DNA of 64,000 nt from an uncultured Nitrospiraceae bacterium (GTDB lineage: Bacteria; Nitrospirota; Thermodesulfovibrionia; Thermodesulfovibrionales; Dissulfurispiraceae). Position 1 is the stretch's first letter. Each line of letters opens with the position of its first letter. Position numbers and translations under genes: made by a program. The stretch is taken from positions 195,671 through 259,670 of the forward strand of contig CAVPIW010000010.1 of assembly GCA_963705105.1 (NCBI GenBank), in the 5' to 3' direction. Shown here in pieces: positions 3,884 to 41,330 of the stretch. Under the pieces are notes generated by a model, which had not been told where the DNA came from, did not search any database, and worked only from the letters and a program-made list of their open reading frames with translations.

Positions 3884-4117
3884 ATGAAAAACCAGGCGGT
3901 TGAAGAAAAAAGAGTGATAACAAAGCCGTCCTGCCCCCATCTCATGAAATCGGTCATCCCGTCCTGCCGGGCTGCGGACGAACCCTACGCGCCCAGCCCC
4001 TTTCAGATGACGGAATACTGCAGGACGCGGAACCACCGGAAATGCCCGTTCTTCATGAACCTGTCAAAGCCGGCCTTTGACCGGTCCGTTGAAGGATGGC
4101 TCGTCAGCATCCTGTAA
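3884..4117 (+). CDS. Small Cys-rich (putative zinc-binding) hypothetical protein
   Basis: CPHL...C...YC...H..CPFF pattern. Confidence 0.6.
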   Translation: MKNQAVEEKRVITKPSCPHLMKSVIPSCRAADEPYAPSPFQMTEYCRTRNHRKCPFFMNLSKPAFDRSVEGWLVSIL

Positions 4118-4168
4118 CGGAATCATCATCATCCTGTAACATTACTGTAATATGTGCAATGGTATACT
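4103..4168 (+). promoter_or_regulatory. PHO-box-like array (5 units) plus -10 of pstS
   Basis: GTCAG 4103, GTAAC 4114, ATCAT 4125, GTAAC 4136, GTAAT 4147; TATACT at 4163. Confidence 0.85.
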
Positions 4169-5243: not shown

Positions 5244-5280
5244 AGGGAGGCGGGTGACCCGCCTCCCCGCCTTTCTTTTA
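5244..5280 (+). terminator. Hairpin/intrinsic terminator after pstS
   Basis: GGGAGGCGGG-TGA-CCCGCCTCCC followed by a T-rich tract. Confidence 0.65.
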
Positions 5281-5336
5281 ACATTCCTGTAACATTCTTG
5301 TAACATTCCTGTAATATTAAACAGTCAAAATATTAT
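5278..5336 (+). promoter_or_regulatory. PHO-box-like array upstream of pstC
   Basis: TTAAC 5278, GTAAC 5289, GTAAC 5300, GTAAT 5311 (near-perfect 11-mer TAACATTCCTG); TATTAT at 5331. Confidence 0.85.
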
Positions 5337-10759: not shown

Positions 10760-11232
10760 AACTCTTATTATAGCCTATATCATGACGGGAAAACCCCGGA
10801 TTGCCATTGTCCCCGCGTGTCACCCCGGAAAATTGTCCCGGCAGTTGTATGAAAAGGCACGGCAAAGCGCCTCAAAGACTCGCTGGCAGCGACATTGATC
10901 ATTTCAGGTCGTGTATCAGGATTCCCTCCTTGATAAGGTCCTTTCTTCGCATAATAAACCCTTATCACCACAATGAGATCTCAGGAAAGACGGGGCGAAT
11001 GCGCCGAAAAGCATCGGTGCTGCGAAACCTCTGCCTTCCCGTGCAGACCATTGCAGACCAACGATCGAACAAAATTAACCTTTTACTGACACTCACACTG
11101 ACACTGACACTGTTTTTCGGAGCGTTTTGCCCCGTCTTTTCGCGCAAGGCAACCGTGAATTTTTCTTCAGAAACCACACCCTATCCTTGTTTCCAAGGTT
11201 TTGCTGCAAGATATTCTGGACAGGAGTGTCCT

Positions 11233-11270
11233 GTAACACACTTTTCATATTGCCGTAATCAGGCGGTAAA
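11233..11270 (+). promoter_or_regulatory. PHO-box-like array upstream of the TraR/DksA gene
   Basis: GTAAC 11233, TTCAT 11244, GTAAT 11255, GTAAA 11266. Confidence 0.65.
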
Positions 11271-11729: not shown

Positions 11730-12047
11730 TCATTCTGATGTCGTTTTGAGGCCGATGACACCGGTGACGATCAGGATGATACAGATGATCTGAGACAGCT
11801 TGTACGGCTCCTTCAGAAAAATCATGCCGAAGAGATTGCATCCGGAGATGGCGATTCCGACCCAGACGGCGTAGGCAATGCCCGTCGGCAGCGATTTGAG
11901 CGCCTGGGATAGGAAGAAGGCCGCTCCCAGGCCGCAGATCGCGTAAAAAACAAGGGGGAAGAGACGGGTGAATCCCTCCGTCATTTTCAGACTGTAGATC
12001 CACCCGATCTCGAAAACACCTGCTATGATGATGTAGATCCAGGGCAT
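11730..12047 (-). CDS. SMR family transporter (SugE/Gdx-like)
   Basis: MPWIYIIIAGVFEIGW...LPTGIAYAVWVGI; overlaps the 3' end of the NeuB-like gene. Confidence 0.88.
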   Translation of the reverse strand: MPWIYIIIAGVFEIGWIYSLKMTEGFTRLFPLVFYAICGLGAAFFLSQALKSLPTGIAYAVWVGIAISGCNLFGMIFLKEPYKLSQIICIILIVTGVIGLKTTSE

Positions 12048-12967
12048 ACCCAGTGTCCGGCATCGGAGTCGGAAACCTCGGAGCAACGGACGCGGCGCAG
12101 CTTCGCGAGCGCTCCTTTTTCGCTGTCGTACACCCTCTTCACTCCGTCTCCGAGAGAGCGCTCGATGTCCCTTATGTTCTTGACAAGCCGCTGCATGCCG
12201 ATGATTTCGACCGACGCAGCCTGGTCGGTCCCCCACATGGCCCTGTCGAGCGTCACATGGCGTTCTATGAAGGACGCCCCGAGGACAATGGACGCCCAGG
12301 TGGGTGACAGTCCCGTCTCGTGGCCGGAGTACCCGATGGGCACACCGGGGAACATGCCCTTCAGAGTCGGTATCATCCTGAGGTTCAGCTCCTCGACCCT
12401 GCAGGGATAGGATGATGTTGAATGGGCCAGCAGGAGTTTCTCGGTGCCGACGACCTGCACCGCCTTCCGTATCTCGATTATCGTCGACATCCCCGTGGAC
12501 AGGAACACGGGTTTTCCTGTCGATGCCATCTTTCTCAGGAGATCCAGGTCGGTCAGGCTTGCCGACGGCGCCTTGTGAAGGGGCGGGTCAAACTGTTCGA
12601 TGAAGTCGACGGACTCTTCATCCCATGACGAGACGAACCAGGTGATCCCCTTGCTCTGACAATGCTTCGCTATTTCAACATAGTCGTCGAAGTCGAACTC
12701 CACACGCCGCCGGTATGCGATATAGGTCATTCTTCCCCATGGAGTATCCCGCTCGATGTCCCACTGGTCCCGGGGGACGCAGAGCTCGGGGGTCCTCTTC
12801 TGGAACTTTACGGCGTCACATCCGGCGAATACGGCGCCGTCGATCATCTTTTTCGCCGTGTCAAGGCAGCCGTTGTGATTGATGCCGATTTCCGCGATGA
12901 CGTACACGGGCTCATCATCTCCGATGAACCGGCCATTGACGCTTACTTTCCTTTGATGTGACAACAT
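12023..12967 (-). CDS. NeuB-family ulosonate synthase (short form, no obvious C-terminal AFL domain)
   Basis: IAEIGINHNG, AVKFQKR, LSTGMS, GYSGHE, ERHVTLDRAMWGTDQ. Confidence 0.92.
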   Translation of the reverse strand: MLSHQRKVSVNGRFIGDDEPVYVIAEIGINHNGCLDTAKKMIDGAVFAGCDAVKFQKRTPELCVPRDQWDIERDTPWGRMTYIAYRRRVEFDFDDYVEIAKHCQSKGITWFVSSWDEESVDFIEQFDPPLHKAPSASLTDLDLLRKMASTGKPVFLSTGMSTIIEIRKAVQVVGTEKLLLAHSTSSYPCRVEELNLRMIPTLKGMFPGVPIGYSGHETGLSPTWASIVLGASFIERHVTLDRAMWGTDQAASVEIIGMQRLVKNIRDIERSLGDGVKRVYDSEKGALAKLRRVRCSEVSDSDAGHWVCPGSTSS

Positions 12968-13022
12968 GTTACCTCCTTTGTGCTGTGCCTGTGTGCTTGA
13001 TATGAAGTGACGAAATCAGGCT

Positions 13023-13595
13023 TCATCCCCGGTTCACGCCTTTGTGGATATCCACATCCCCTATCCTCTCCTGTGCGAGGCCGGCCCTGGCGGCGATAAT
13101 AAATTCCGCGAATTCCCTGAAGGCCCCGTGACCGCCGGGCAGGGAGCAGACGAAATGAACCGCAAAAAGGGTTTCCCTGAAGGCGTCACGGGGACAGGCG
13201 GACAGTCCGACGCGTTTGATGACGGACAGATCGTTCGTGTCGTCGCCGATGAACGCCACCTCGTGCGCCTCAAGACTCCGCTTTCTGAGGATCCGCTCCA
13301 GCACTTCCAGCTTGTCCCTGACGCCCAGATGCAATTCACTGATTCCCAGTTTCTCCGCCCTCTTCCTGACAGAGCCCGACAATTCGCCGGTGATGATCCC
13401 CGTCTCAACGCCGGCGATATCGCGCAGCCTTTCCACACCCATGCCGTCGCGGATCGAAAACCGTTTCAGCATTTCTCCTCCGTCCCCATAGTAGACACCC
13501 GTATCGGTCAGGACGCCGTCGACGTCGGTCAGGAGCAGTCGGATCCACCGTGCCCTGTCAGCCACTGCCTTTCTGCGATGAAACTCACGGTTCAC
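13023..13595 (-). CDS. KdsC-like HAD phosphatase (ulosonate-phosphate phosphatase)
   Basis: DVDGVLTD, RDGMG, IGDDTND, GGHGAFRE; GTG overlaps the SDR stop. Confidence 0.9.
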   Translation of the reverse strand: MNREFHRRKAVADRARWIRLLLTDVDGVLTDTGVYYGDGGEMLKRFSIRDGMGVERLRDIAGVETGIITGELSGSVRKRAEKLGISELHLGVRDKLEVLERILRKRSLEAHEVAFIGDDTNDLSVIKRVGLSACPRDAFRETLFAVHFVCSLPGGHGAFREFAEFIIAARAGLAQERIGDVDIHKGVNRG

Positions 13596-14395
13596 AGGGC
13601 CGTCCACCCCCCATCGACGATGAGGTTCGCCCCTGTCATATAGCATGATGCTTCGCTTGCAAGGAAGACGACGGCCCCCCGGTAGTCGCAGGGGCTCGCC
13701 ATGCGCCGGAGAGGCGTCTTGGCGCAGTAATTCCTGACGAAGTACGCGTCCTGGCCGTTCTCCACACCGCCCGGCGAGAGCGTATTGACGCGGACGCCGC
13801 ATTCGCCCCAGTAGGAGGCGAGGAATTTCGTGAAGGCGATGACTGCGCCTTTGCTCGTCGGATAGGCCGGTGACTTGTGAAAAGGCTGTTCTCCCGAAGG
13901 TTTGCGGTAAATGGACTGGTCGGGAGCGACGACGCCGTACGTGGACGCGATATTGATGATGCTCCCCTTTCCTCTTTCAGCCATATGAGAGCCAATCGCC
14001 TGGGAACAGAGGAACAGCCCCGTAACGTTGACATCCATGACGGCCTTCCACATGGCGAGGGGATAATTCTCGAAACGGGACAGTTCGGCGGCGAGATGGG
14101 GGTCTTCGAATTTTTCATTGATCGCCGCATTGTTGATGAGGATGTCGACACCGCCGAAACGCCCGATCGCCTCTTGGAGGAGATGCCGCACCGCCGTTGC
14201 GTCCGTCACGTCGACGGCGACCCCCAGCCCTTCCGGCTCGAATTCTGCGGCGAACTCCCGGCACTTTTTCCCGTCGGTGTCGCAGGCCACCACATGGGCG
14301 CCCGCTTCCGAGAGGGCCAGGCAATGCTCTCTGCCCAGCAGGCCCAGCGCCCCGGTGACGACGGCGACCTTACCGTCCAGTGAGAACTGCTTCAT
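13592..14395 (-). CDS. SDR oxidoreductase
   Basis: TGALGLLG, NNA, YPTSK, NLIVDGG. Confidence 0.92.
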   Translation of the reverse strand: MKQFSLDGKVAVVTGALGLLGREHCLALSEAGAHVVACDTDGKKCREFAAEFEPEGLGVAVDVTDATAVRHLLQEAIGRFGGVDILINNAAINEKFEDPHLAAELSRFENYPLAMWKAVMDVNVTGLFLCSQAIGSHMAERGKGSIINIASTYGVVAPDQSIYRKPSGEQPFHKSPAYPTSKGAVIAFTKFLASYWGECGVRVNTLSPGGVENGQDAYFVRNYCAKTPLRRMASPCDYRGAVVFLASEASCYMTGANLIVDGGWTAL

Positions 14396-15734
14396 GGTCC
14401 TCTTTTTTCCTCGGCTTGATGTTGAAATTCCCGGTCCGCCGGAAGACGGGCTCCACAGGCTCTCCCCGGAGGCATTCTCTGACGTTGTTCTCCTCCAGGG
14501 CGGTCCCGAGCATGGGAAGCACTTTACTGTAAATTTCGAGGAGATACTCTATGTCCTCGTTGCCGTGGGAGAAGCTGACGGCGTGAAACCCCGACCAGAG
14601 GACGCCGTGCCTGAAGAGTTCCTGCTGGACATATGACTTCATAACAAGGGGGTCCCCGGCAGCGCCGTCGAAGGTGACGAGGGTGCGCGCATCGGGTCCG
14701 ATACAGCGTGTGTATTCCATGTCGAGGTTCCGGGCAATCCTGTTGTAGCCGTCTTTGAGCTTCCTGCCCTGTCGCGCAAGGTGGCCTGGCACGTCTTTTT
14801 CCCTCATCTCCTGTATGGTCGCCCGGGCTGCCGCAAGGGACAATGCCTCACCTCCGAAGGTGGTGTAGAAGAAGACGTCCCTTTCGAGGAGCGCCATGAT
14901 CTCCCTCTTTCCCGCAAGCACCGAGAGGGGCATCCCGTTTGCGATCGCTTTCGAGTAGCAGACGAGATCGGCCCTGACGCCGTAATATTCCTGCGCGCCG
15001 CCGAGGGCGATGCGAAATCCCGTCCACATCTCGTCGAAGATGAGGACGATGCCCGTCCTGTCGCAGATCTCCCGCAGCACGCCGAGGAAGTCGTCCTTCG
15101 GCTCTTCGAACGCGACGGGTTCGAGGATGATACAGGCCGTATCGTCGTCGATCGAATCGATGACGGACGCGGGATCATTGTAGGCGAAGGTGAAGGTGAG
15201 GTCCTTCATGGCTTTCGGCACTCCCCTGTTCCTGTCCGTCACGGCGATGTACCAGTCATGCCACCCGTGATAGCCGCAGCAGAGCACCTTTTCCTTCCCC
15301 GTATATGCCCTCGCAAGGCGGACGGCGGCCGAAGTGACATCGGCGCCCGTCTTGCTGAAACGGACGGCCTCGGCTGAGGGGACGACGGAGCGGATCAGCT
15401 CCGCCACCTCCACTTCGAGGGGGTGCATCATGGAAAAGGTGATGCCGTGAGCAAGCTGCTGTCTGATCGCTTCGTCCACGGCCGGGTAGCAGTATCCGAG
15501 GGAGAGGGGCCCCACGGCCATGGTGAAGTCGAGGTATTCGTTTCCGTCGGCGTCCCATACCCGGGCTCCCTGGCCCCTGGTCAGATACTTCGGCGCCACT
15601 CTCCTGATATACTGAGTCGGCCCTTTCGCCAGTGTCTGCGTCACGCCGGGGATGATTTGAAGCGCCCTCTCGTAGAGCTCCTCCGACCTGTCTACGGCTG
15701 GATAGTCTTCATTGAATCCGATGCTGTTCGGCAT
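14370..15734 (-). CDS. Class III PLP aminotransferase (GSA-aminomutase-like)
   Basis: DADGNEYLD, GYHGWHD, FDEMWTGFR, SKAIANG. Confidence 0.9.
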   Translation of the reverse strand: MPNSIGFNEDYPAVDRSEELYERALQIIPGVTQTLAKGPTQYIRRVAPKYLTRGQGARVWDADGNEYLDFTMAVGPLSLGYCYPAVDEAIRQQLAHGITFSMMHPLEVEVAELIRSVVPSAEAVRFSKTGADVTSAAVRLARAYTGKEKVLCCGYHGWHDWYIAVTDRNRGVPKAMKDLTFTFAYNDPASVIDSIDDDTACIILEPVAFEEPKDDFLGVLREICDRTGIVLIFDEMWTGFRIALGGAQEYYGVRADLVCYSKAIANGMPLSVLAGKREIMALLERDVFFYTTFGGEALSLAAARATIQEMREKDVPGHLARQGRKLKDGYNRIARNLDMEYTRCIGPDARTLVTFDGAAGDPLVMKSYVQQELFRHGVLWSGFHAVSFSHGNEDIEYLLEIYSKVLPMLGTALEENNVRECLRGEPVEPVFRRTGNFNIKPRKKEDHEAVLTGR

Positions 15735-16644
15735 GGGACCTCCCTCCCTTTTTGTATTCGAAAATGCGACCTGCAAGTTTCTGCCCCGTCATGCCGGCAT
15801 GATCGAGGACCTCCTCCAGGAGGGCGGGCCTGAACCAACTGTTTTCGAGGGATACGGGCAGGACATCGCACATCAGGCCGTTGCTGATGAGGACCTCACA
15901 GACTATGCCGTACAGACCGCCCGTCTTGAAATGATCCTCAACGGTGACGATGAGGTCTGTCTCCTCGGCGGCGGAAAGGATGACCTCTTCGTCGACGGGC
16001 TTGACGGTCCTGAGATTGATGAGACGGACCGACGAGCTTGTCCGCTGAAGGATCTCCGCTGCTGCAAAGGCCTCGCTGAGGAGCATCCCGTACGTGATGA
16101 TCGTTATGTCCTCTCCGGCAGAGATGACCTCGGCCTTGCCGATCCCGAATGCAGGATCATGGGTGACGGCCGGCTTCCTGTGATTCAGTCTGATATAGCA
16201 GGGGTGGGGGCTCAGCAGGAGGGTCCGGAGCCCGATGACGAGGTCTTCCTCATCGGCGGGACAGAAGATCTGCATATTCGGGATCATGCGCATGAGCGCC
16301 ACGTCCTCGAGGGCCTGGTGGGTCGGCCCGTTCGCCTCGGAGAGAAACCCGGGAACGCCTCCGCAAAGCTTGACCGGCAGGTCCGGCAGGCCCACGTCGG
16401 TCCGAATGAACTCAAAGGCCCTCATGGTGAGGAAAGCGCTCAGCCCGTGCACGACGGGGATGCGCCCCCTGAGGGCGAGTCCCGCCGCCGTCCCGATGAG
16501 AGCCTGCTCCGTGATCCCCGTATCGATGAAGCGGTTACCCAGGTCCGGTATGATGTCCCGTATGGAGATCCTGTTTTCGGCGGTGAGGACGACAAAGCGG
16601 TCATCGGACAACACGATGTCCCGCAGGGTTTCCTGATAGCTCAT
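15709..16644 (-). CDS. Transketolase C-terminal subunit
   Basis: DTGITEQ, NGPTHQ, TVKPVD, VEDH..GG. Confidence 0.9.
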   Translation of the reverse strand: MSYQETLRDIVLSDDRFVVLTAENRISIRDIIPDLGNRFIDTGITEQALIGTAAGLALRGRIPVVHGLSAFLTMRAFEFIRTDVGLPDLPVKLCGGVPGFLSEANGPTHQALEDVALMRMIPNMQIFCPADEEDLVIGLRTLLLSPHPCYIRLNHRKPAVTHDPAFGIGKAEVISAGEDITIITYGMLLSEAFAAAEILQRTSSSVRLINLRTVKPVDEEVILSAAEETDLIVTVEDHFKTGGLYGIVCEVLISNGLMCDVLPVSLENSWFRPALLEEVLDHAGMTGQKLAGRIFEYKKGGRSHAEQHRIQ

Positions 16645-16645
16645 A

Positions 16646-17503
16646 TCACCTCACCCCCGCCGTCTCGGGCGTGCAGCGGCCGCCGGATGCCGCTCTCAAG
16701 TCGCCGATGAGACCTTCCGCTTCTTCTTCGGTGAAGTTGCAGAACCAGCGGTCTATCCGGTACTCGAGGCTCGGCACCCCCTTGCCCCTGATCGTTTCGG
16801 CGATGACGACGCTCGGCGACCCCAATTCGAAGGGAGCGAGCTGAAAAGCCCTCTCGATGTCCCTGAAGTCATGGCCGTCCACAATCATCGTCGCGAGGCC
16901 GAAGGACCGGAACTTTTCATCGAGCGGTTCGAGCGGAAGAAGCGACTCCGTCTTCCTGTTCGCCTGGACACGGTTTCTGTCAACGACGATGATCAGGTTC
17001 TCCAGGCCCAGCGCGCGCGCCACGAGAAAACCCTCCCAGTTGGACCCTTCATTGAGCTCCCCGTCTCCCACGATGACGACGACCCTGTTCCTCCCTTCCC
17101 TCATTTTGCAGTCGAGGGCGACTCCTGTCGCGACGGGGACGAGATGCCCGAGGGAGCCGGCGTGGAACTCGACGCCCGGAATGCCCCTGTTGGGATGCCA
17201 ATATATGTCGTCTGCGGTGGTGAGGTGATTCTTCAGCCGCTCTTTTTCGAGTATGCCCGCCTCTGCAAGGGCCGCATAGAGGGCCGGGACGGCGTGACCT
17301 TTCGAGAGAAAGAGGTAATCCCGGGAGGGGTCATCGAGCAGATCGGGCCGCACGCGAAGGAAGGAGCCGTATAGATACACGAGCAGATCGGCGCAGGAGA
17401 GGGCCGATCCGGCAAAGGCGCCTCCGTTCCTCGACATGCCGATAATACTTTCCCTCACCCTGAGGGCGGTCTCCTTCAGCCTCATTAATTCCTGACGTTC
17501 CAT
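16646..17503 (-). CDS. Transketolase N-terminal (TPP-binding) subunit
   Basis: LSKGHA, GSLGH, GDGELNEG..WE, VDGHD. Confidence 0.9.
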   Translation of the reverse strand: MERQELMRLKETALRVRESIIGMSRNGGAFAGSALSCADLLVYLYGSFLRVRPDLLDDPSRDYLFLSKGHAVPALYAALAEAGILEKERLKNHLTTADDIYWHPNRGIPGVEFHAGSLGHLVPVATGVALDCKMREGRNRVVVIVGDGELNEGSNWEGFLVARALGLENLIIVVDRNRVQANRKTESLLPLEPLDEKFRSFGLATMIVDGHDFRDIERAFQLAPFELGSPSVVIAETIRGKGVPSLEYRIDRWFCNFTEEEAEGLIGDLRAASGGRCTPETAGVR

Positions 17504-17516
17504 CTTGTCTCCTTTC

Positions 17517-18350
17517 TCACCCTATCGTCTTGAGTTCTTCACGGTGATGCATGTACCAGCCTGTGCCGAGATATCCGGCGTTCCTGCTCCTGATGTGCGG
17601 GTGGTCGTCAAGAAAACGCAGGATATCGCCGATGCCGAACAGGGGATTCTCCCTTGAGAGATGCTCATAGACCGGGCTGATGACATCGTAGTCCTCCCGG
17701 TAGTCGAGGACCCAGCGGTACGTCATCGAATAGTTCAGTCCCAGCTCCCATGCGACGTTGCCGATGCGGAAACGGCCGGGGTTGTCCCAGATGAAAGGTG
17801 TCGTGTGCTCCCGTTCAAAGCCCCTCGATGCCTCGCGCCAGGCCGTCTCAAGGACTCCCATGTGCATTGCTTCCACATCGTTCCCGTCCGGGTAGGTCTG
17901 GGGATGAAGGTTGCTGACGTAGTCGTAGTGGCGGCGATGGCGGAGAAAATAGAGGATCACCCTGTCGACGACGCCGGGGTCGATGAGCGGGCAGTCCGAG
18001 GGAATCTTGACGACCACATCGGCGCCGAAGGACCGGGCCGCCTCATAGTGCCGGTCCAGAAGGTCCGTCGGATGGCCCCTGAAGCAGGGGATGCCCTCAT
18101 AATCGCAGATCCGCTCGATGATGACGTCTTCGGGCAGGACCGTCGTGGCGACGACGACCTCACCTGCCGACAGCGACTCCTTTACCCTTTCAACCATCCT
18201 CACGAAGGACGGCTTGCCTCCCAGGGGCTTCAATACCTTTCCCGGGAGTCTTGTCGACCCGGTCCTTGTCTGGATGACGGTGACGACCTTGAGAAGCGAC
18301 AGGTCGCCGCCTGCCGACGAAGTCTTCTTCCCTCCCTTTCGCCCATTCAT
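17517..18350 (-). CDS. SpsF/PseF-like cytidylyltransferase
   Basis: IQTRTGSTRLPGKVL, SDCPLIDP, REHTTP. Confidence 0.88.
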   Translation of the reverse strand: MNGRKGGKKTSSAGGDLSLLKVVTVIQTRTGSTRLPGKVLKPLGGKPSFVRMVERVKESLSAGEVVVATTVLPEDVIIERICDYEGIPCFRGHPTDLLDRHYEAARSFGADVVVKIPSDCPLIDPGVVDRVILYFLRHRRHYDYVSNLHPQTYPDGNDVEAMHMGVLETAWREASRGFEREHTTPFIWDNPGRFRIGNVAWELGLNYSMTYRWVLDYREDYDVISPVYEHLSRENPLFGIGDILRFLDDHPHIRSRNAGYLGTGWYMHHREELKTIG

Positions 18351-19297
18351 TCGAGCATCTCCCTGCAGACGCCGGCGATGTTGCCCGCCGATGTCCCCCT
18401 GTTTTGAATGGGCGACAGTTCCCGGAGCGTATCGACGTCGAAATAGGAATGCACCTCTTTTCCGAGGGAGATGCCTGTAAAAGCGAGGGAGGAGTACTGC
18501 GTGACAAGGACGTCGCAGTTCGCCACCATGTGGTGCGCATTGCCGTCGGCATAGACGAGGGCGCCTGGTGCATGTCTCCTGATCTCCCGCGCGGACCGGG
18601 AGACATTTTCATTGGGGTGGAGCTTGAAAATGAGCTTTCTCCCTTCGGCTATTTCGGCGGCCCGGCGGATGAATTTCTTTCTCCTGTCGATCTTGAAGGT
18701 CTCCCGCGCATCCGACGTCGCTGCAAGGACGTGCCCTTTGTGGGGGAAATCATTGTCCATGTATTGCTCGGCATGGTCGAAGTTCGGGATGCCCGTGACG
18801 ACTATGCGGTCGGCTTTCACCCCTTTCCGGATGAAGAGGTCCCGGTATCCCTCGGATGCGACACAGAAGCGTTCGTATGCATGGGAAAGACCCGCCGTCG
18901 ACGTGCTTGCCAGGTATCGCGGCAGTTTCAGGTGTTTGACGGCATGGTAGGCCAGGTTTTCCGGGTCCGTCATTCCTTCCTGGACGAGGATCACTTTTTT
19001 GTTCCTGATATTTTTCTGGACGATCAAATCCGAGCAGGTCAGCACGAGATGATAGTCGTCCCTGATGCCCCCTTCATCGATCAGGCAGCGGTGTTCCCTC
19101 AGGTACTCCACGGTCAGCCTCCGCATGTTCCCGCCGAGGACGGTGAAATCGAGATAGCCTGCTTTCGAGAATTTACCGATCAAGCCGTCTCCGTAGAAGG
19201 GTGAAAACCGGCATTCGTATTCTTCCAGATGCTCCGCTATCTTGTGCATCTGCGTCGTCTGATTGAGGGAGCCGCAGATGAAGAGGATTTTTTTCAT
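18347..19297 (-). CDS. Putative GT-B glycosyltransferase (sialyl-/CDP-glycerol-transferase-like)
   Basis: Start ATG 19297; VTGIPNFD, FKLHPNE, DVLVTQYSS resemble the HP and SS motifs of CMP-sugar transferases. Confidence 0.65.
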   Translation of the reverse strand: MKKILFICGSLNQTTQMHKIAEHLEEYECRFSPFYGDGLIGKFSKAGYLDFTVLGGNMRRLTVEYLREHRCLIDEGGIRDDYHLVLTCSDLIVQKNIRNKKVILVQEGMTDPENLAYHAVKHLKLPRYLASTSTAGLSHAYERFCVASEGYRDLFIRKGVKADRIVVTGIPNFDHAEQYMDNDFPHKGHVLAATSDARETFKIDRRKKFIRRAAEIAEGRKLIFKLHPNENVSRSAREIRRHAPGALVYADGNAHHMVANCDVLVTQYSSLAFTGISLGKEVHSYFDVDTLRELSPIQNRGTSAGNIAGVCREMLE

Positions 19298-19328
19298 CGG
19301 CACGATGATTGATGATACCGGACGGGGT

Positions 19329-19388
19329 GTTACAGGAATATTAAGGCACGATGAAAGGTAGGTGAAAGTATTGTTACAGGAATGTGAA
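19329..19388 (-). promoter_or_regulatory. PHO-box-like array (6 units) upstream of the ulosonate operon
   Basis: On +: GTTAC 19329, ATTAA 19340, ATGAA 19351, GTGAA 19362, GTTAC 19373, GTGAA 19384. Confidence 0.72.
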
Positions 19389-19394
19389 CCCGTA

Positions 19395-19600
19395 GTTGCA
19401 TAGAAAGACGGGGCGAAGCGCCTCAAAGCCTTGCTGAAGGCGACGATACGCCTCATTAGGTTTGTCTTTAAGGATTCTACTCTTTGTGGCATCGACCATT
19501 GGCTTGAAAGGTTGTCTTCTGCGAGGGTTACGGTGTCGCCGCAGCAAGGTTTTCGGCGCATACGCCCCGCCTTTCGCGGGAGTGTGTTGCAACGATAAGG
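19395..19600. repeat. ~200-bp MITE-like element; inverted homologue at 30145-30347
   Basis: GTTGCA...GGGGCGAAGCGCCTCAAAGCC left end, CGCCCCGCC...TTGCAACGATAAGG right end. Confidence 0.75.
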
Positions 19601-19619
19601 TGACCCTGTGGCTGTCATA

Positions 19620-20990: not shown

Positions 20991-21396
20991 AAAACCCTCC
21001 AGGTACGAGTATTTTCCTGTCCTCACCGGAACGGACGCCGGCGGATCTTGCACAGCCGATTGTGAACCCTCCAGTTGCATGAAAAGGCGGGACAAAGTGC
21101 ATCAACGCCTTGGTGCTGCGAAAACTTTGCCTTCCCATAAAGACTATTTCAGGCAAAGGGCTGAAAAAATCAACCCTTTACGTACACTCACACTGACACT
21201 GACACTGTCTTTCAGAGCATCTTCGCCCCGCCTTTCCGGAGGTCCTATTGCAACGATAAAGTGAAGAGAAGTTTTCGTCGGGGATGTACAGACGTGATAG
21301 GCGGTATGCGGTGCCGAAGATACTTTGCCCGCCTTGGGGCAGTCATGTGTACCGGCGCTGTTCGCCATGAGGTTGGCTTATTATCGCACGGGTGGT

Positions 21397-21434
21397 GTTA
21401 CAGCAATATTACGTTTTGGAAACAATTCGATGAA
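21397..21434 (-). promoter_or_regulatory. PHO-box-like array upstream of the PhoH gene
   Basis: On +: GTTAC 21397, ATTAC 21408, GAAAC 21419, ATGAA 21430. Confidence 0.55.
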
Positions 21435-21558
21435 AATATGCGAATGCCTCACGTTGATATTTGATGACAAAAGGATTATTTTGTGGTATAAATTGGCAGC
21501 AGGAAAAACACCGATTCCTTCACTGACACTCACACTCACACTGTTTTTTAAAGGAGGC

Positions 21559-24500
21559 ATGGTCATGGTCAATCGCTTTCATCATATCCTTATGACGAGC
21601 GTATTCCTCGTATGGACTCTTTTGCCCTGCGTCGCTTCCGCGCATGGACCGGACCGGGTTGAATCCGACTTTTTCGTGAAAACCGGGCCCTATCTCGACA
21701 GCCAGGCCGGCATCCCTTTTTCGGAATCCCTTTTTGCCGTTCAAGGTCAAACGAAAATTGCCCAGTCCGGTCGGGCAATCAATGCGGCGGATGAGGCCGC
21801 GGTCTCTTTCAGGGACGTGCGCCGGGCCTATTTCTCCGGCGACGAACTGGATGTTCATGTCTCCGTGCAGTCACAGTCTCAGGGTATGAGGGGAGATTTT
21901 TATGCGGTTATATGGACACCGGGTCTCAGGAATGTCATTTTTCTTACGGGCGATCCGCTTAGTCCCCTCTCAATGGTCCCGACCGCTCTCAGAACGTTTG
22001 TAGGTGCCGGATCGCATGATTATCAGGTCCTCCGGTTCAGGCTGCCGGACCTGGCGCAGGGGCTCGAACTTTTCTTTTACGCAGCCCTGGTCAATGCAGG
22101 CACTCCGGTAACAGAGGCGTCCTTCATATCGAACATCGCCCAGGCGAACACCAGGATCATCGGCAACAGCAGCAACGAGGCGGACCGGAAGCAGACCGCC
22201 TTCATGAGGACCCTCAGGACCATCTCAGGCCCGGACACGTACCGTGCAAAGACGGCAAAGGGGGCGTTGAAACGGCTGGACCTGGAGCTTGCCATCCCCA
22301 AAACCCTCCTGCCGCCGGCCTCAGGTGATGACGACCTGGCATTGACCCTCCTTTCTGCAACGCAGGACCTCCTGAGGGTGGAATCACCCCGCCGGAGCTT
22401 CCGCCTCCTCAAGAGGGCGGGACAGGGAACACGAACGCTGACATTCCGCCAGTATTACCAGGATGTCCCTGTCTACGGGTCCTGGCTCCAGATGACGATC
22501 CAGGACAGGGAGGGCTCCTTCCTCCTGAAGAACATGTCCGGAAAGTACATACCTGACCTCAAAATGGATCAGCCTGACCCCACCCTGTCGGCCCCGGAGG
22601 CGAGGCTCAGGGTCATGAAGGCCTTCGGGATCAAGAGCCTGGACAGGCTGAGGATGCCCGTTCCACTGAAGCTGTGGATCTACGATGAGGCACTCTTCGC
22701 CCCTGTCTGCCCGAAATGTCCCGATATCACACATAGTCCGCGGCCGGCCTGGAGGGTCGTCTTCGAATCGCCCGCCCATGGCGGCGTGCTGACGGACGCC
22801 TTTGTCGACGCGTCAACGGGGGAGATCCTGCGCGCCCAGCCCCGGATCGATGATAACGACATGCATATCAGGTCAGCCAACGGCAACACCCTTTCAGACT
22901 GTGCGGACACGAATGACTCCGTCGCCTGGCTCGATGAAGACGGCGTCTGCAAGACACTGGCATCCTGCTCGGGCTGGAATCCCTGCTACTGGGACACCCC
23001 TCATACCTGTGCCAACCCTGACGCGGAGGGCTTTACGGCATTCGATCTGGGCCACCTCATCGACCGGTTCTACAACGACGTCTTCGGCCGCCGCTCCTAT
23101 GAAGACAGCGACAGTTCAGTCTACCGGATCATTCTCGACGTGAGTTTTACGGGCGGAGACAATGCCATGGCCGAACAGTGCGGCGCTTACGAAATCCACA
23201 AGTTCTCCGACGGCTGGGCCACCGCAGACATCATGGGGCATGAATTCGGCCATTCCTTCCACTGGTCCGAGGTGCGCTATGACAGGACCGGGCAGAGCGG
23301 CGCCGTCAAGGAGCACATCGCAGACATGTTCGGCTACTTCTTCGCTGCCTGGAGCGGCCTCGATCCGGACTGGCAGCATGGGGAGCATGCACCGGGCGGC
23401 GGCGGAAGGGACATGGCAAACCCGTCCAGGGACCACATAGACGACTACAATTTCGCCCCTGTCAACGCGGCGAACGACTGGGGAGACGTTCACGCGAACA
23501 GCACCATTCTGAGCAAGGCCGCCTACCTGATGACCGCAGGGGACACCCATCCCGACACGGGCATCCGCGTCAGGGGCGTCGGCGACGTGAAATCGAGGCA
23601 GATCTACTACAGGCTCGTCACGGAGAAACTGGCGGAGAACAACGACTTTGACGATTTCTCGTCCAAGATCCAGGACGCCTGCATCGAGCTGATCGGGCGT
23701 TACGAAATCACCGAGAACGACTGCTGCCAGGTGCGAAACGCCATGGCGGCCATAGGACTTGAAACGGGAGACTCGGACTGCGACGGCAGGGCAGATGACG
23801 TTGAAACGGACGATGACAACGACGGTGTTTCCGATGGAAGCGACAACTGTCCCTTCGTCCCGAATCCCGGGCAGGAAGACGACGACGGGGACGGTTCCGG
23901 TGATGTCTGCGATGACGACGCCGACAGCGACGGCATCAGGAACGCCGATGACAGCTGCCCCCTCGCAGTCAACACCGGCAACGATCAGGACGGGGACGGC
24001 ATTGACGATGCCTGCGACGACAGCGACGGCGACGGCATCGTCGACAGCCTCGACAACTGCCCCAATGCGAGAAACCACAGCCAGGCTGACATGGACGGCG
24101 ACGGACAGGGTGATGCCTGTGACGATGACAGGGACGGCGACGGTGTCGACGACAGCTCCGACAACTGCCGCGATGTTTCAAACAGCAATCAGGCCAACAG
24201 CGATACGGACAGGTGGGGCAGCGCCTGCGACAACTGCGACAGCATTTCCAATGACCAGTCCGACATCGACGGCGACGGCCGCGGCGACGACTGTGATGAC
24301 GACATCGACGGCGACGGCATTCTCAACGGTGAGGACAACTGTCCGGAAGAATACACGGCATCTCCTGAATTGTGCGTCGCCCCTCCGGGCTTCGCCTGCA
24401 GCGATTACGGCTGCCCGCCGAGACCTTTGCTGCCCGCTGCGGAAGTGATGATGCATCTCAACTGGGAACGCCTGCAGGCGGCACACCCGTCTGCGGTGAA

Positions 24501-24966
24501 CCCGGGCTTCGGCATGTCCCTGGACCCCTGCAGCGTCATCGACTGCCGGCCCCAGACCCTCTTCGGGGAGAACGAAGTCCTGCAGGTTGCGATCAGCCTG
24601 GGGATGGGCCTGCCGGCGACATCGCAGACATCCTTCCCGTTTATCGTCAGCGTGTTTGACGAAGAGGGTCACAGGGTGGCGTCCGGTGAGGTGTCCTTCT
24701 TTGCGAACGCAAGGGAGCAGCGGAGGGAAGGAGAGGTGGTTCTGTCCTTCAGGATGATGCCGTCATTCACATGGAGACAGTCCGGCGTCCTGACCGGTCA
24801 GTCCGGCACGGACAACCGGACGGCGACGGACATCGGGGCCGGGGCGGCGCTGCCCGCCTGCCACCTCCTGATCATGCCCCGGAATATGAGCGACCAAAAC
24901 AGGGCACAGCTTTCGCAGATACCACTGAAGTTCTCATATAGGATGAGCTTGCAGTCGCAGAAATAG
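21559..24966 (+). CDS. Secreted M4 (thermolysin-like) metallopeptidase with FTP propeptide and thrombospondin type-3 Ca-binding repeats
   Basis: AGGAGG + ATG 21559, signal peptide; FRQYYQDVPVYG; HEFGH...EHIAD...VHANS; DxDGDG..D.CDNCP repeats. Confidence 0.88.
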   Translation: MVMVNRFHHILMTSVFLVWTLLPCVASAHGPDRVESDFFVKTGPYLDSQAGIPFSESLFAVQGQTKIAQSGRAINAADEAAVSFRDVRRAYFSGDELDVHVSVQSQSQGMRGDFYAVIWTPGLRNVIFLTGDPLSPLSMVPTALRTFVGAGSHDYQVLRFRLPDLAQGLELFFYAALVNAGTPVTEASFISNIAQANTRIIGNSSNEADRKQTAFMRTLRTISGPDTYRAKTAKGALKRLDLELAIPKTLLPPASGDDDLALTLLSATQDLLRVESPRRSFRLLKRAGQGTRTLTFRQYYQDVPVYGSWLQMTIQDREGSFLLKNMSGKYIPDLKMDQPDPTLSAPEARLRVMKAFGIKSLDRLRMPVPLKLWIYDEALFAPVCPKCPDITHSPRPAWRVVFESPAHGGVLTDAFVDASTGEILRAQPRIDDNDMHIRSANGNTLSDCADTNDSVAWLDEDGVCKTLASCSGWNPCYWDTPHTCANPDAEGFTAFDLGHLIDRFYNDVFGRRSYEDSDSSVYRIILDVSFTGGDNAMAEQCGAYEIHKFSDGWATADIMGHEFGHSFHWSEVRYDRTGQSGAVKEHIADMFGYFFAAWSGLDPDWQHGEHAPGGGGRDMANPSRDHIDDYNFAPVNAANDWGDVHANSTILSKAAYLMTAGDTHPDTGIRVRGVGDVKSRQIYYRLVTEKLAENNDFDDFSSKIQDACIELIGRYEITENDCCQVRNAMAAIGLETGDSDCDGRADDVETDDDNDGVSDGSDNCPFVPNPGQEDDDGDGSGDVCDDDADSDGIRNADDSCPLAVNTGNDQDGDGIDDACDDSDGDGIVDSLDNCPNARNHSQADMDGDGQGDACDDDRDGDGVDDSSDNCRDVSNSNQANSDTDRWGSACDNCDSISNDQSDIDGDGRGDDCDDDIDGDGILNGEDNCPEEYTASPELCVAPPGFACSDYGCPPRPLLPAAEVMMHLNWERLQAAHPSAVNPGFGMSLDPCSVIDCRPQTLFGENEVLQVAISLGMGLPATSQTSFPFIVSVFDEEGHRVASGEVSFFANAREQRREGEVVLSFRMMPSFTWRQSGVLTGQSGTDNRTATDIGAGAALPACHLLIMPRNMSDQNRAQLSQIPLKFSYRMSLQSQK

Positions 24967-25245: not shown

Positions 25246-26988
25246 TCATGCAACGGGCAGGTATATCTTCACCTTCGTGCCTTTTCCGAAGGCGCTCTCG
25301 ATCTTCATCTCCCAGCCATGGGCCCTGACGAGGTGCTTGACGATGGCGAGACCGAGGCCGGTGCCGCCCATGGTCCTGGAGCGGGCGGGGTCGACGCGGT
25401 AGAAGCGCTCTCCCAGTCTCGGCAGGTGCTTCTGCTGAACGCCGATACCTGTATCCCGCACGAAGAGGACGAGCCGCCCCGCGTCCTCTTCGGCTCCCAG
25501 GGTGATTTCGCCCTTCTCCGTGAATTTGATCGCATTGTCGACGAGATTGGTCAATATCTGGATGAGCCTGTTCCTGTCCGCCTGTATCGTGCCGATGCCC
25601 TCCGGGAAGGATGTCCCGACGGCGAGCCCCTTTTCCGCCGCCTTGCTCCTGAGAAGGGCCAGCACAGTGTCGGCGACGTCGATGATGTCGATTTCCGCTT
25701 TCTCGACCTTGATGACGCCGAGCTCTATCCTGGATATCGTCATGAGGTCGTTAATGAGGCTGTTGATCCGCTCGCTGTTCGCCTTGATCATCCCGGCGAA
25801 CCTGATGGCGTTCTCCCTGTCGTCAATGGCCCCTTCGAGCAGCGTCTCGGCGAACCCCCTGATGGCCGTTATGGGCGTCTTCAGTTCATGGGAGACGTTG
25901 GCCACGAAGTCCTTCCTGATCTCCTCGAGCTTTTTCATCTGCGTGATGTCGTGAAGAACGGCGACGAATCCTGCGAGGTCGCGGTCACGGTAAAACAGAG
26001 GTGACACCTTGGCGACCAGGTATCTCTCATCGGGGAGGTCGAGCTTGAGCTGGACCGATGCCGGCGAGAGGCTGGTCCTGACATGATCCACGAGGTCCGC
26101 AAAATCGTGGCTCCTCACGAGTTCCAGGAACTGCTTTCCCGCCGGGTCGGTATTGCCGAAATACTCCGACGACGAGGCGCTCGACAGCAGGACCGTCCCC
26201 TTCGAGTCGGTGATGAGGAGGGCATCGGGCACGCTCTTGAGGATCAGGCCCAGGCGGTTCTTCTCCTCTTCCTTTTCGCTCATGACGGATTTCAGCTTTT
26301 CCGTCATGGTATTGAAATTACGGGCGATCTCCTCGAATTCCCGTCCCCCTTTCAGGAAAAGCTTCCCGCTGAAATCCCCCCCGGCGAGGGACTGGGAAAA
26401 CCCCCTCATCTCGCCGATCAGCTTCCTGAGCCGTTCTATCTGGAGGATGGAGAGGATGCCCGTCGACAGCAGGACGATGCTGACGATGACGATGAGCATG
26501 AATCTTAGATCGTTGACGGCACGGTCGATCTCTTCGAGAGGGACCGCCATCCTGATGAAGCCCTGAACGTCTCCGTCTCTCGTTATTCTCCTGGCGATAT
26601 AGAGATAGTCATGCCTCGTCGTCTCGCTGAGTCTGACCGAAATCCCTGTGGCCGAGAGAAGAGCTTCGACGATCTCGCTCCTGCCGGCATGATTCTCCAT
26701 CTGCGACGAATCGGTGTCCGAATCGCCGATGACCACCCCGTCACCCCTGATAACGGTGATCCGGGCGCCTGTCGTCTCCTTCAGCCTCTTGCAGAGGTCG
26801 TCGATCTTTCCCTGCCCGAAGGGGACGATATCTTCGAGAAGTCCGAGCTGGACGACGAGGCTTTTCTTCAGGTCCTCTTCCCGCCTCTCCCTGACCGCCT
26901 CGGTGATGAATATCTCGATCAGGGCGATTGACAGGACGGTGAGGATCACGTAGATCAGGATGATCCGTGTCAGCATGTCTCTTTTCAT
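25246..26988 (-). CDS. phoR: Phosphate regulon sensor histidine kinase (HAMP-PAS-HisKA-HATPase); start uncertain
   Basis: MENHAGRSEI, DFVANVSHELKTPIT, ERFYRVDPARSR, GGTGLGLAIVKH. Confidence 0.85.
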   Translation of the reverse strand: MKRDMLTRIILIYVILTVLSIALIEIFITEAVRERREEDLKKSLVVQLGLLEDIVPFGQGKIDDLCKRLKETTGARITVIRGDGVVIGDSDTDSSQMENHAGRSEIVEALLSATGISVRLSETTRHDYLYIARRITRDGDVQGFIRMAVPLEEIDRAVNDLRFMLIVIVSIVLLSTGILSILQIERLRKLIGEMRGFSQSLAGGDFSGKLFLKGGREFEEIARNFNTMTEKLKSVMSEKEEEKNRLGLILKSVPDALLITDSKGTVLLSSASSSEYFGNTDPAGKQFLELVRSHDFADLVDHVRTSLSPASVQLKLDLPDERYLVAKVSPLFYRDRDLAGFVAVLHDITQMKKLEEIRKDFVANVSHELKTPITAIRGFAETLLEGAIDDRENAIRFAGMIKANSERINSLINDLMTISRIELGVIKVEKAEIDIIDVADTVLALLRSKAAEKGLAVGTSFPEGIGTIQADRNRLIQILTNLVDNAIKFTEKGEITLGAEEDAGRLVLFVRDTGIGVQQKHLPRLGERFYRVDPARSRTMGGTGLGLAIVKHLVRAHGWEMKIESAFGKGTKVKIYLPVA

Positions 26989-27235
26989 CTTGAATAAAAT
27001 CATACCACGTATCCTGCCGCCATTCAAGGACGGCACCTTCTTTCAACCTTTCACTGACACGCACACTGACACTGTCACTTTTTCCCCTTTATTCATTATA
27101 TGGATCAGGGGTATCATAGAAGAACCTCATCGTTGCATAAGCCTTCCGGAGGCAGCTTCGCCATGAGAAGGCTTTGAGGCGCTTCGCCCGCCTTTTCATG
27201 CAACTAATAAGGTTAACCCGTCAGACGAGAAGGAG

Positions 27236-39632: not shown

Positions 39633-40975
39633 TTCCCTGTTATTACGATCACAAGCTGATCGTTGTTGAATCCGAACGTGATCCCGTCATATCCGAAGAA
39701 CTTCGTTGCGACGATCTCCTCGGGGATGCTGATTGCAGAAGGGGGCATGGTCTGCACCGGCTGACCGTGCATTGCAATAATATTCTGGGTTGTCATGTCG
39801 AACCGGTAGTCCTCCGGCTTGTACGCACCCGGCTGTGTCGGCATGCCGGCTGCGGAGATCGGGGTTTGCTCTATGAAAGCTCCATCGATGAAGGAGACCG
39901 CCATGCCGGCTGCCCCGTAGGCCCAAACCTCGTCGATCCTCGCCACTCCTCCGGAGAGCCTGATCACTTTGACGAATTGAGAGGGATACCCGTAGTTGGT
40001 TATTATCGCCTCCTGCTGGGGCGAAAGCGGCGAGAAGCGCATGGTCGCAATGGAGATATCGCTCACCCAGTTGTTCGGGTCAAAGAGCGCGTTGCCCGCC
40101 CTGACAAGAAGCGCATAGAAGTTGTAATCCCCCCAGGGCAAACCGCCCGGCAGGGCAACGGGAGGAAGGACGGTGAGAATGTCGCCCGTCGTGATAGGGA
40201 AATTCCTCTTGTAGACAGGGACGGCATCCCAGGGGAGTTGATCGCCGAGAAACACGAAGGGGCCGCCCTTGAGTTCCAGGAGAAGGTACATGTCCGCATT
40301 ACCGGCGGCAGTGCCGTGTTCCAGTCCGTACATCCAGCTAAAGGTCGACCCTGGTATGGATGCCGCAGGAAAGACTCCGGAGAACAGGGCGTGTTTGGTC
40401 TCCGGCGATGGGACGAAAGGCGCCTCCTGGATGGGGCCTCTCGGCTTCGATCCTGCCGGCGTTGATGGGACTGTCCCCGTTCCGGGGACATTGCCTGTCC
40501 GGGTGCTTGCGGGCGCCTGATAGGTGGCGGTAAGTGTGAAGTTCGTCCTGGCATTGTTCAGATTCAGCGTCGCCACGTACCACTTTCCCGCCCTGAGGGG
40601 CGGTGTCGAGGACGGCGTTACAGTGATCGTTTCACTCGCCGTGGGACCTTCGGACCTAAAATCGGCGCTTGCACTCAGGAGATCGGGCGAGCTGAACCCG
40701 ACCAGAGGGATGTTATATTTCAGGTACAGATCGAGGTCCCCGCTGCCGTTCGTCAGCGTCACCGTCAGGCTGGTCGCCCCCGCCGGCACGTCAATATAGG
40801 CGTTTGCATAGGTGAGGGCCTCAAGGAAAGTGTTGAAGGGGACCCCGCTCTGCAGGACCGTCTGGCCCGCTCCGTCAGGTACGATAATCAGTAAAACGAC
40901 AGTGATGCACAGGGCCAGGACCGCCGTGAGCGGCGAGCCCGTGAATAAGACACGCAAACGTGGTGATGAACTCAT
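39629..40975 (-). CDS. Secreted PPC-domain protein (copy 1)
   Basis: GGAGG + ATG 40975; VPAGATSLTVTL..GSGDLDLYLK...GKWYV. Confidence 0.8.
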   Translation of the reverse strand: MSSSPRLRVLFTGSPLTAVLALCITVVLLIIVPDGAGQTVLQSGVPFNTFLEALTYANAYIDVPAGATSLTVTLTNGSGDLDLYLKYNIPLVGFSSPDLLSASADFRSEGPTASETITVTPSSTPPLRAGKWYVATLNLNNARTNFTLTATYQAPASTRTGNVPGTGTVPSTPAGSKPRGPIQEAPFVPSPETKHALFSGVFPAASIPGSTFSWMYGLEHGTAAGNADMYLLLELKGGPFVFLGDQLPWDAVPVYKRNFPITTGDILTVLPPVALPGGLPWGDYNFYALLVRAGNALFDPNNWVSDISIATMRFSPLSPQQEAIITNYGYPSQFVKVIRLSGGVARIDEVWAYGAAGMAVSFIDGAFIEQTPISAAGMPTQPGAYKPEDYRFDMTTQNIIAMHGQPVQTMPPSAISIPEEIVATKFFGYDGITFGFNNDQLVIVITGK

Positions 40976-41330
40976 ATTCCGCCTCCTCCATGAAGAGTTC
41001 CAATGTGCTGTTGAAAAAAGGCAGGGCAAAGCGCCGCAAAGTCTGTTTTTCTGCTCCAATCTGCAATATGTGTGCATACTATACCTTCTATCATATTTTC
41101 GGGGATCTGTCCACAGGGTTTATCGATGTATTACGAAGAGTTATCCTCAACGTCATCACAGACACCATGGGAGAAGGCAAGGATGCAGAACACAGTTGAT
41201 TGTCTGCCGCCAACAGTGAAAAGACAGCGGGAAAGGCAAAAAGGGGGAAAATAGAAAGAGAGTCACCGAAACAAGCGTTGTTCGAAGAAGGGGACAGGAT
41301 GCCTGACATCCCGCCCCCCCTGCAAAGGAG

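Follow-up and report, generated by a model that had tools for sequence, protein, structure and literature searches.

The nine-gene operon and its control region

The DNA analysed here, a stretch of 64,000 nucleotides (the window) on contig CAVPIW010000010.1 of an uncultured Nitrospiraceae bacterium (assembly GCA_963705105.1; genome of 4.23 Mb, 99% complete), carries an operon of nine minus-strand open reading frames at 11730-19297, which overlap or are separated by gaps of at most 55 nt and are predicted to make an activated ulosonic acid for transfer to a membrane lipid. The block of nine genes had been proposed in an original prediction made from the letters of this stretch; all nine frames were found, and profile matches of the nine products agreed with the families assigned at that time.

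The first gene (gene 1, 18347-19297) encodes a protein with a GT-B fold whose family has no name; it is likely a CMP-ulosonate:lipid glycosyltransferase (GT), with invariant QEG and KLHPNE motifs and a TxYSS motif. Its profile matches were weak (PF04464, 22.8 against a cut-off of 22.1; PF02350, 19.2 against 30.6), and its nearest named relatives are from Nitrospirota. It is followed by an SpsF-type cytidylyltransferase (17517-18350; PF02348, CTP_transf_3), for which CMP activation is the likely role, and by the N and C subunits (16646-17503 and 15709-16644) of an accessory, split transketolase-like enzyme dependent on thiamine pyrophosphate (TPP). The core of the operon further includes a class III, glutamate-1-semialdehyde-aminomutase-like aminotransferase using pyridoxal phosphate (14370-15734; Aminotran_3; nearest model PRK06209, 385 bits against a cut-off of 486), which is the likely amine installer, and a short-chain dehydrogenase/reductase (SDR; 13592-14395; PRK09186-related, below cut-off), which likely makes the carbonyl for transamination. 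A KdsC/YrbI-type HAD phosphatase (13023-13646; TIGR01670, above cut-off), which may in fact begin at the GTG at 13595, a short NeuB without an AFL/SAF domain but with an FQKRT motif (12023-12967), likely a synthase of the 2-keto-3-deoxynononic acid 9-phosphate (Kdn-9-P) type, and an accessory small multidrug resistance (SMR) transporter, Gdx/SugE-like below cut-off (11730-12050), which may serve in export or flipping, complete the operon.

A scan of GTDB with gene 1, covering 51 of the 64 parts of the database, returned 601 stretches and 514 confirmed relatives. The best 80 were kept, and the synteny set consisted of the 59 loci whose downstream part measured 7.5 kb or more, 21 truncated ones being excluded. 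SpsF stood directly after gene 1 in 80 of the 80 best loci. The predicted order GT-SpsF-transketolase-aminotransferase-SDR-KdsC-NeuB was constant in all 59 loci, with the transketolase pair (present in 47) and KdsC (51) as optional members; the aminotransferase and the SDR were found in all 59, NeuB in 58 and the SMR transporter in 15. The carriers span about ten phyla, among them Nitrospirota, Ignavibacteriota, Bacteroidota, Chloroflexota, Acidobacteriota, Gemmatimonadota and Bdellovibrionota, and a Methylomagnum plasmid holds the full gene set; Rosettibacter primus, Melioribacter spp. and Methylomagnum ishizawai are carriers available in culture. Within the bacterium's own order a close NeuB ortholog was patchy (4 of 41 genomes). 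Some operon copies have an endonuclease/exonuclease/phosphatase-family gene before the SDR gene (L126:7434-8306, L029, L071, L072 and L134). A literature search, with subscription journals largely outside its scope, returned no description of the operon, which is real, widespread and apparently undescribed.

The operon is preceded by an array of six in-register 11-bp direct repeats of the Pho-box type (19327-19392, minus strand), only three of which have the exact core. Matching plus-strand arrays stand 5′ of pstS (4110-4153) and between pstS and pstC (5274-5317), the latter just past the pstS stop and about 460 nt 5′ of pstC. With a matrix trained only on these two regions (7 units), the operon units scored -6.4, 14.6, 5.6, -1.1, 7.1 and 14.6, and the best five-unit sum of 40.7 bits took rank 3 in the genome, or rank 2 when the training sites were excluded, as against at most 25.5 bits for wrong spacings (9, 10, 12 and 13) and at most 23.6 for 10 block shuffles. 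The array ends 29 nt before the first ATG of gene 1, and a -10-like hexamer lies 9 nt past its last unit. Sites of the PhoB type have an 11-bp period. Because of this period and of the location of such units at pst, the repeats were read as Pho boxes, and both this function and a -10 role of the hexamer are likely from the sequence; low phosphate is predicted with high confidence to activate the operon promoter.

The most upstream unit, which scored negatively, abuts a dispersed repeat of about 205 bp (19394-19601, no strand assigned), located between a phoH-like gene and the array and outside the control region. This palindromic element, resembling miniature inverted-repeat transposable or repetitive extragenic palindromic elements, gave 223 BLAST matches of at least 150 nt, and 541 in total, across the genome; partial copies border several window genes.

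Eight of the 11 arrays above 17 bits fall within one 30-kb island (G000:C10:185214-215051), made up of the window from its start to 19381 and the preceding 10 kb, which holds pstSCAB-phoU, dksA-like, GH1, PHP and GT21 genes. GT21 is the family of ceramide glucosyltransferases. Arrays of the island stand 5′ of GH1-PHP-GT21, a P-type ATPase cluster, pstS, pstC and the dksA-like gene (11229-11250), and one stands after the gene of a secreted PHP-like phosphoesterase. The window also encodes a PhoR-like kinase (25246-27036) with no response regulator adjoining; four OmpR-type candidates are on other contigs.

Similar arrays were also observed elsewhere. The pst-trained matrix detected them 5′ of gene 1 in 13 of 18 Nitrospirota-type loci (a grouping of our own, four members of which are titled otherwise) and in 2 of 60 others, and in 8 of the former the array ended exactly 28 nt before gene 1. 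As the matrix was too GC-specific for AT-rich taxa, it was replaced there by the TAA-core hexamer, chosen after the matrix output. Hexamer pairs at 11-bp spacing were found in 29 of 56 other loci and at 22-bp spacing in 23, whereas other spacings gave no more than 5, the opposite strand 11 and 500 shuffles no more than 3; because the hexamer was chosen post hoc, this result rests on the spacing and shuffle controls. Genes of pst or phn adjoin the operon in four loci (L008, L010, L012 and L065). Boxes thus accompany the operon across phyla, and both the likeness to the pst motif and the Pho-type control proposed in the original prediction were retained.

Predicted sugar chemistry and transferase

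The sugar genes point to a route other than those of the common nonulosonic acids. The AFL domain is missing from NeuB, and a QKR motif stands in 57 of 59 parsed orthologs at a position where ordinary NeuB/PseI proteins have QT, QI, QA or QM; outside the family, the nearest named NeuB comes from an actinobacterium (Nonomuraea, 55%) and is encoded beside a NeuA-HAD gene. The best model for the phosphatase was KDN-9-P phosphatase, below its cut-off (145 against 180). No PF02350 epimerase match was obtained in the genome, in keeping with the earlier statement that a NeuC epimerase is missing, although the fold of gene 1 is NeuC-like. NeuB, HAD phosphatase and cytidylyltransferase without NeuC constitute the gene set for CMP-Kdn. 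The markers of the standard routes to N-acetylneuraminic (Neu5Ac), legionaminic (Leg) and pseudaminic (Pse) acids, namely NeuC or an NDP-sugar dehydratase, a DegT aminotransferase, an N-acetyltransferase and the NeuB AFL domain, were all absent from the cluster, so that the non-standard CMP-ulosonate route suggested at first was upheld. By the simplest reading, the sugar skeleton is likely a Kdn-type nine-carbon acid derived from a non-acetylated aldose phosphate. NeuB would likely condense phosphoenolpyruvate with such an aldose 6-phosphate (mannose 6-phosphate by analogy) to give Kdn-9-P, the HAD phosphatase would release Kdn, and SpsF would convert it to CMP-Kdn; taken together, these three steps are probable. 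In passages of PMC7439481, SpsF is treated as a putative cytidylyltransferase for Leg.

The evidence for amination comes from the constancy of the aminotransferase and SDR genes and from a variant of the pathway in green sulfur bacteria. Among 301 genomes drawn from the phylum of genome G041, 73 encode the Fenna-Matthews-Olson (FMO) protein, by which green sulfur bacteria and their kin can be recognised. Orthologs of gene 1 (51-62%) were found in 65 of the 73 and NeuB orthologs (64-70%) in the same 65, and both were missing from the other 8, though the two genes are unlinked in FMO-bearing genomes: KdsC-NeuB sits apart from the GT locus. In 15 of 20 fetched FMO loci the order was flippase-like gene, GT, NeuA-type CMP-transferase, iron-dependent alcohol dehydrogenase (Fe-ADH) and DegT aminotransferase, and the NeuA-type enzyme replaces SpsF in most green sulfur bacterial loci. 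The best PDB match of the DegT aminotransferase was KdnA (260 bits; next, 169) of the pathway for 8-amino-8-deoxy-3-deoxy-manno-octulosonic acid (Kdo8N). The 65 genomes with GT and NeuB held either a KdnA-like enzyme (54) or the class III aminotransferase of the operon type (9), never both, while two drafts held neither; the eight genomes without GT and NeuB likewise had neither. These eight (G065, G094, G122, G130, G158, G314, G338 and G342) are natural negative controls, possibly of one clade. In a quick tree of 51 GT sequences the aminotransferase swap formed a single branch (SH-aLRT 100).

Two unrelated oxidase/aminotransferase pairs fill one slot, which argues for the conversion of a carbonyl to an amine as a core step of the pathway; the oxidation and transamination of the original prediction were supported. 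The SDR and the class III aminotransferase would very probably replace one hydroxyl by a primary amine, for which CMP-Kdn, after NeuB has acted, is the most likely substrate. Unacetylated neuraminic acid, with the amine at C5, is slightly favoured as the outcome; C8 or C9, giving a Kdo8N-like isomer, is a more tentative placement. No N-acyltransferase was found among the core genes, and the head group would therefore be zwitterionic, with a free amine, and not anionic as first supposed.

The transketolase-like enzyme was demoted from its earlier role as builder of a branched or otherwise TPP-derived precursor. Of the 59 loci, 12 cleanly lack the pair, and the five genomes of this kind that were tested gave only 27-36% matches, in full-length housekeeping enzymes. 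Where present, the TPP-binding GDG..N motif and the split N and C domains are seen, and both ketol-binding histidines (presumably His26 and His261 in E. coli transketolase numbering) are phenylalanine, in 60 of 61 and 61 of 61 orthologs, compared with histidine in 5 of 5 controls; the change of D469 to asparagine in 56 of 56 orthologs is weak evidence, as only 2 of the 5 controls have aspartate. The protein, optional and by its sequence a TPP enzyme whose active site has been rebuilt, would serve as an add-on, not as the skeleton builder.

For gene 1, an alignment-based model of high predicted confidence (pLDDT 90.7) was used, and a single-sequence AlphaFold model (pLDDT 40) was discarded. The model is GT-B, with NeuC/UDP-GlcNAc 2-epimerases as the best fold matches (Z 16-18.4; for the best one, a root-mean-square deviation of 3.7 over 278 residues) and TagF (Z 14.4) and a polysialyltransferase (Z 13.4) as lower ones. 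Identity to the epimerases is only 11-16%, and gene 1 shows TxYSS and HP motifs of a CMP site in place of theirs. Gene 1 retains the R-E pair of the HRRE motif of epimerases, but R10, H213 and E296, which we take to be the GTRxE arginine, the catalytic histidine and the UDP-ribose glutamate, are not kept in a profile alignment in which only 3 of 6 reference epimerases were full-length sequences; a motif search for epimerases among the fetched sequences returned none. The QEG and HP motifs are invariant in 114 of 114 homologs, as is the first S of S(S/T), which fits what we take to be the signature of CMP-ulosonate GT-B enzymes (GT38/52/80/107-like): (D/E/Q)EG, HP, S(S/T) and no ribose-binding acid. 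A PDB profile search gave no sequence-level match to solved sialyltransferases, and its sole significant match was to the CMP-site motif of a TagF-like polymerase. A scan of 16 long homologs, out of 150 listed, showed fusions to an LPG_synthase_TM flippase-like domain in three, to a desaturase-like domain in another and to a remnant of a class III aminotransferase in a fifth. The fold ranking weighs against a plain transferase assignment, but the sequence features suggest that gene 1 is likely a CMP-ulosonate:lipid glycosyltransferase of a new family. It would transfer the sugar to a lipid at the inner membrane, and a flippase-like partner, here perhaps the SMR transporter, would move the glycolipid.

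Lipid acceptor and competing explanations

A membrane lipid is very likely the acceptor. A flippase-like gene stands 5′ of the GT gene in 20 of 20 FMO loci (19 directly, one 1.3 kb away), which, together with the fusions and the lipid-gene neighbours described below, favoured the glycolipid half of the earlier proposal of a glycan or glycolipid over its glycan half. Ceramide is the best candidate, with somewhat better than even prospects. In locus L034 (Caldilineaceae) a ceramide-synthase-like gene lies directly 5′ of the operon behind an 11-bp array of its own, and its product is a homolog (28%, E 9e-45) of a GNAT-type protein of the Nitrospiraceae genome. That protein belongs to a trio of genes for an SDR, a serine palmitoyltransferase (SPT) and the GNAT (G000:C12:130715-133999, L155), which is like the bacterial ceramide trio reported by Stankeviciute 2022 and presumably corresponds to CerR-Spt-bCerS. 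The same genome has another GT copy that is partly damaged (56%; its C-terminal part is apparently frameshifted; G000:C6:694946-710476, L140) and lies 4 kb from a second SPT-like gene and near a polyketide synthase (PKS). The surroundings of this copy hold an EptA-like sulfatase, FabF, the SPT-like gene, an ABC exporter and a type I PKS, and resemble PKS-fed sphingolipid clusters. SPT-like genes, all below cut-off, were present in 35 of 41 genomes of the own order and in 71 of 73 FMO genomes including all 8 without the operon. As a discriminator, SPT co-occurrence was rejected, such genes being near-universal in both the own order and the FMO genomes. According to passages of PMC10667739, Thermodesulfovibrio and Ignavibacterium have ceramide potential, and amino- or glycolipids replace zwitterionic phospholipids at low phosphorus; Chlorobi are listed among sphingolipid producers in a passage of PMC12134224.

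Taken together, the operon is read as producing a Pho-induced, phosphorus-free, zwitterionic amino-nonulosonyl membrane lipid, probably built on ceramide and with the position of the amine left unfixed, which would substitute for phospholipid. This joint reading, in which induction, substrates, order of steps, position of the amine and acceptor are predicted from sequence, was given a probability of about 0.58; the odds of the single steps are judgements and not mutually independent. Several results weigh against it. The best OmpR-type regulator of the genome reached 202 against a PhoB cut-off of 296 and the PhoR-like kinase 291 against 334, and of 15 upstream regions from green sulfur bacteria only 3 had box pairs. 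The best fold matches of gene 1 are the NeuC-type epimerases. The Fe-ADH of the FMO loci matches KdnB, a group III Fe-ADH, at the family level only and is not specifically KdnB-like, and since the aminotransferase swap is one event, the 54/9 split does not amount to 63 independent tests. No flippase-like gene was found in the Nitrospiraceae genome. Because SPT-like genes are near-universal and below cut-off, they only permit ceramide; a clear SPT was missing from 2 of 5 other carriers (39-40% matches), and OlsF and OlsAB neighbours elsewhere point to other acceptors.

These neighbours are the basis of the best-placed alternative, itself unlikely, by which the head group and Pho logic are the same and the sugar is carried by diacylglycerol, a diether or a lipid of the hydroxylated ornithine type, or by different lipids in different lineages. 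OlsF (708 bits, above cut-off) was found in 6 of 59 loci, an OlsE-related fatty-acid hydroxylase after NeuB in 36 of 59, lplT with OlsB/OlsA-like genes 3′ of the operon in Methylomagnum, and metallophosphoesterase neighbours in 20 of 81 loci, and the carriers without clear SPT agree with it. The Nitrospiraceae genome, however, gave no OlsF match and holds the ceramide-type trio; the ceramide-synthase-like gene in L034 adjoins the GT, and the one known candidate product is a sphingolipid.

It is improbable that the operon feeds an anionic surface glycan or decorates lipopolysaccharide (LPS), in the manner of teichulosonic acid or of Kdo8N on lipid A. KdnA acts in LPS synthesis, the actinobacterial NeuB is the closest named one outside the family, and locus L042 has polysaccharide-like genes 5′ of the operon. 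Passages of PMC13011467 state that PhoP governs Streptomyces teichulosonic genes and controls SCO4873-4882 of Streptomyces coelicolor. Set against this, Wzx/Wzy, an ABC exporter or a second transferase were absent from the recurrent neighbours, the conservation across phyla is very high, unlike that of O-antigen loci, and a separate KdsA-like/KdsC pair is present in the Nitrospiraceae genome. The GT-flippase fusions and the draft genome of L034, in which no lpxC match was found, also speak for a lipid; with this carrier, the setting is not confined to LPS-bearing diderms, the product having at first been assigned to a diderm. An O-antigen or flagellin pathway was rejected as well, since export, polymerase and Maf neighbours are absent and the operon is constant across phyla.

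Early amination, by which the aminotransferase and the dehydrogenase make an amino-aldose 6-phosphate that NeuB extends, whether or not gene 1 is a NeuC-like hydrolase, is quite improbable. PtmA is assigned to hexosamine-6-phosphate synthesis in Campylobacter. The SDR is related to PtmA and is encoded beside KdsC-NeuB in three FMO loci, and the NeuC fold and HRRE pair of gene 1 would suit a hydrolase; the epimerase residues not kept and the TagF-like CMP-site match argue against one. In green sulfur bacteria the Fe-ADH and the KdnA-like enzyme sit with NeuA and the GT, away from NeuB-KdsC, and free 5-amino neuraminic acid cyclises. It is very improbable that the TPP enzyme and the aminotransferase produce either a sugar with a branch or an extended chain or, without SPT, a sphingoid-like 2-amino-1,3-diol backbone, because, for all its invariant histidine-to-phenylalanine changes, suggestive of a hydrophobic, non-canonical site, and its place beside the aminotransferase in all 47 loci that bear it, the transketolase pair is missing from the loci and genomes given above and from the 15 KdnA-type loci, and SPT-like genes are already present.

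The original prediction was supported in part: the amino-nonulosonyl lipid reading keeps the Pho region, the non-standard route, the amination and a phosphorus-sparing envelope product, now read from sequence as a membrane lipid. The TPP-built precursor became secondary, the predicted charge changed from anionic to zwitterionic, a membrane glycolipid was preferred to a glycan, and the system was no longer restricted to LPS-bearing diderms.

Elsewhere in the window, positions 21325-24966 encode a large, thermolysin-like peptidase of the M4 type that bears thrombospondin type 3 repeats. Near-duplicate pairs of genes for predicted secreted, repeat-bearing proteins lie at 37512-44768 (about 39629-41077/37512-39632 and 43419-44768/41331-43397), with a transposase adjoining at 45567-47243.

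Relation to known systems and significance

The operon would combine Pho lipid remodelling with tailoring of the Kdo8N type and is a member of neither characterised pathway. Phosphate-starvation remodelling (OlsF and OlsBA, Agt/PlcP glycolipids, sulfoquinovosyldiacylglycerol and the betaine lipid DGTS) is alike in its Pho-box control and its phosphorus-free polar lipids, and OlsF, OlsB/A-like, GT4, GT21 and phosphoesterase genes recur near the operon. To our knowledge, none of the known remodelling lipids has a head group derived from a CMP-activated nonulosonate. Nor is such a lipid listed in the passages of PMC10667739. The Kdo8N pathway of Shewanella oneidensis, with the oxidase KdnB and the aminotransferase KdnA, likewise oxidises and then transaminates an ulosonate, but KdnA is the best PDB match of the green sulfur variant only, the enzymes in the window being a class III aminotransferase and an SDR; that pathway uses Kdo made by KdsA and the transferase WaaA, whereas the operon has a NeuB-made sugar of the nine-carbon type and a lipid GT. 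The CMP-Kdn pathway of Bacteroides thetaiotaomicron (BT1713-1715) and the Streptomyces teichulosonic genes share NeuB, a HAD phosphatase, a CMP-transferase and the lack of NeuC; compared with them, the operon adds an amination module, a TPP enzyme and a new GT family, and its neighbours are lipid and not wall-polymer genes.

An aminoglycosphingolipid from Chlorobium limicola (Jensen, Knudsen & Olson 1991) is cited in a passage of PMC11762602. Green sulfur bacteria, the group of its producers, hold the GT, NeuB and KdsC orthologs, the oxidase/aminotransferase pair and the flippase-like gene, as well as SPT-like and reductase-like genes. The head group of the 1991 lipid is reportedly unacetylated neuraminic acid on a ceramide. 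The window uses SpsF, SDR and class III aminotransferase where green sulfur bacteria use NeuA, Fe-ADH and DegT. The operon may plausibly be the pathway of this lipid; genes assigned to the lipid were not found in the same literature search. A bolder proposal is offered as a tentative one, of less than even chance: bacteria of about ten phyla would replace phospholipid by a ganglioside-like lipid, unacetylated neuraminyl-ceramide, which is phosphorus-free and zwitterionic, the neuraminic acid being formed without N-acetylmannosamine (ManNAc) by oxidation and transamination of CMP-Kdn at C5, through either of two unrelated enzyme pairs, and joined to the lipid by a new, NeuC-like GT family, and this would be the missing pathway of the 1991 Chlorobium lipid.

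If the amino-nonulosonyl lipid reading is true, a new class of phosphorus-free membrane lipid would enter the Pho remodelling repertoire, in abundant and little-studied groups such as Nitrospirota, Ignavibacteria, green sulfur bacteria and others. The predictions include an amino-nonulosonic acid made independently of ManNAc, a new family of CMP-sugar:lipid transferases and a TPP enzyme whose active site is rebuilt. The Chlorobium lipid of 1991, without an assigned pathway in the literature searched, would gain its genes, and the product would offer a lipid biomarker for phosphorus-limited anoxic waters.

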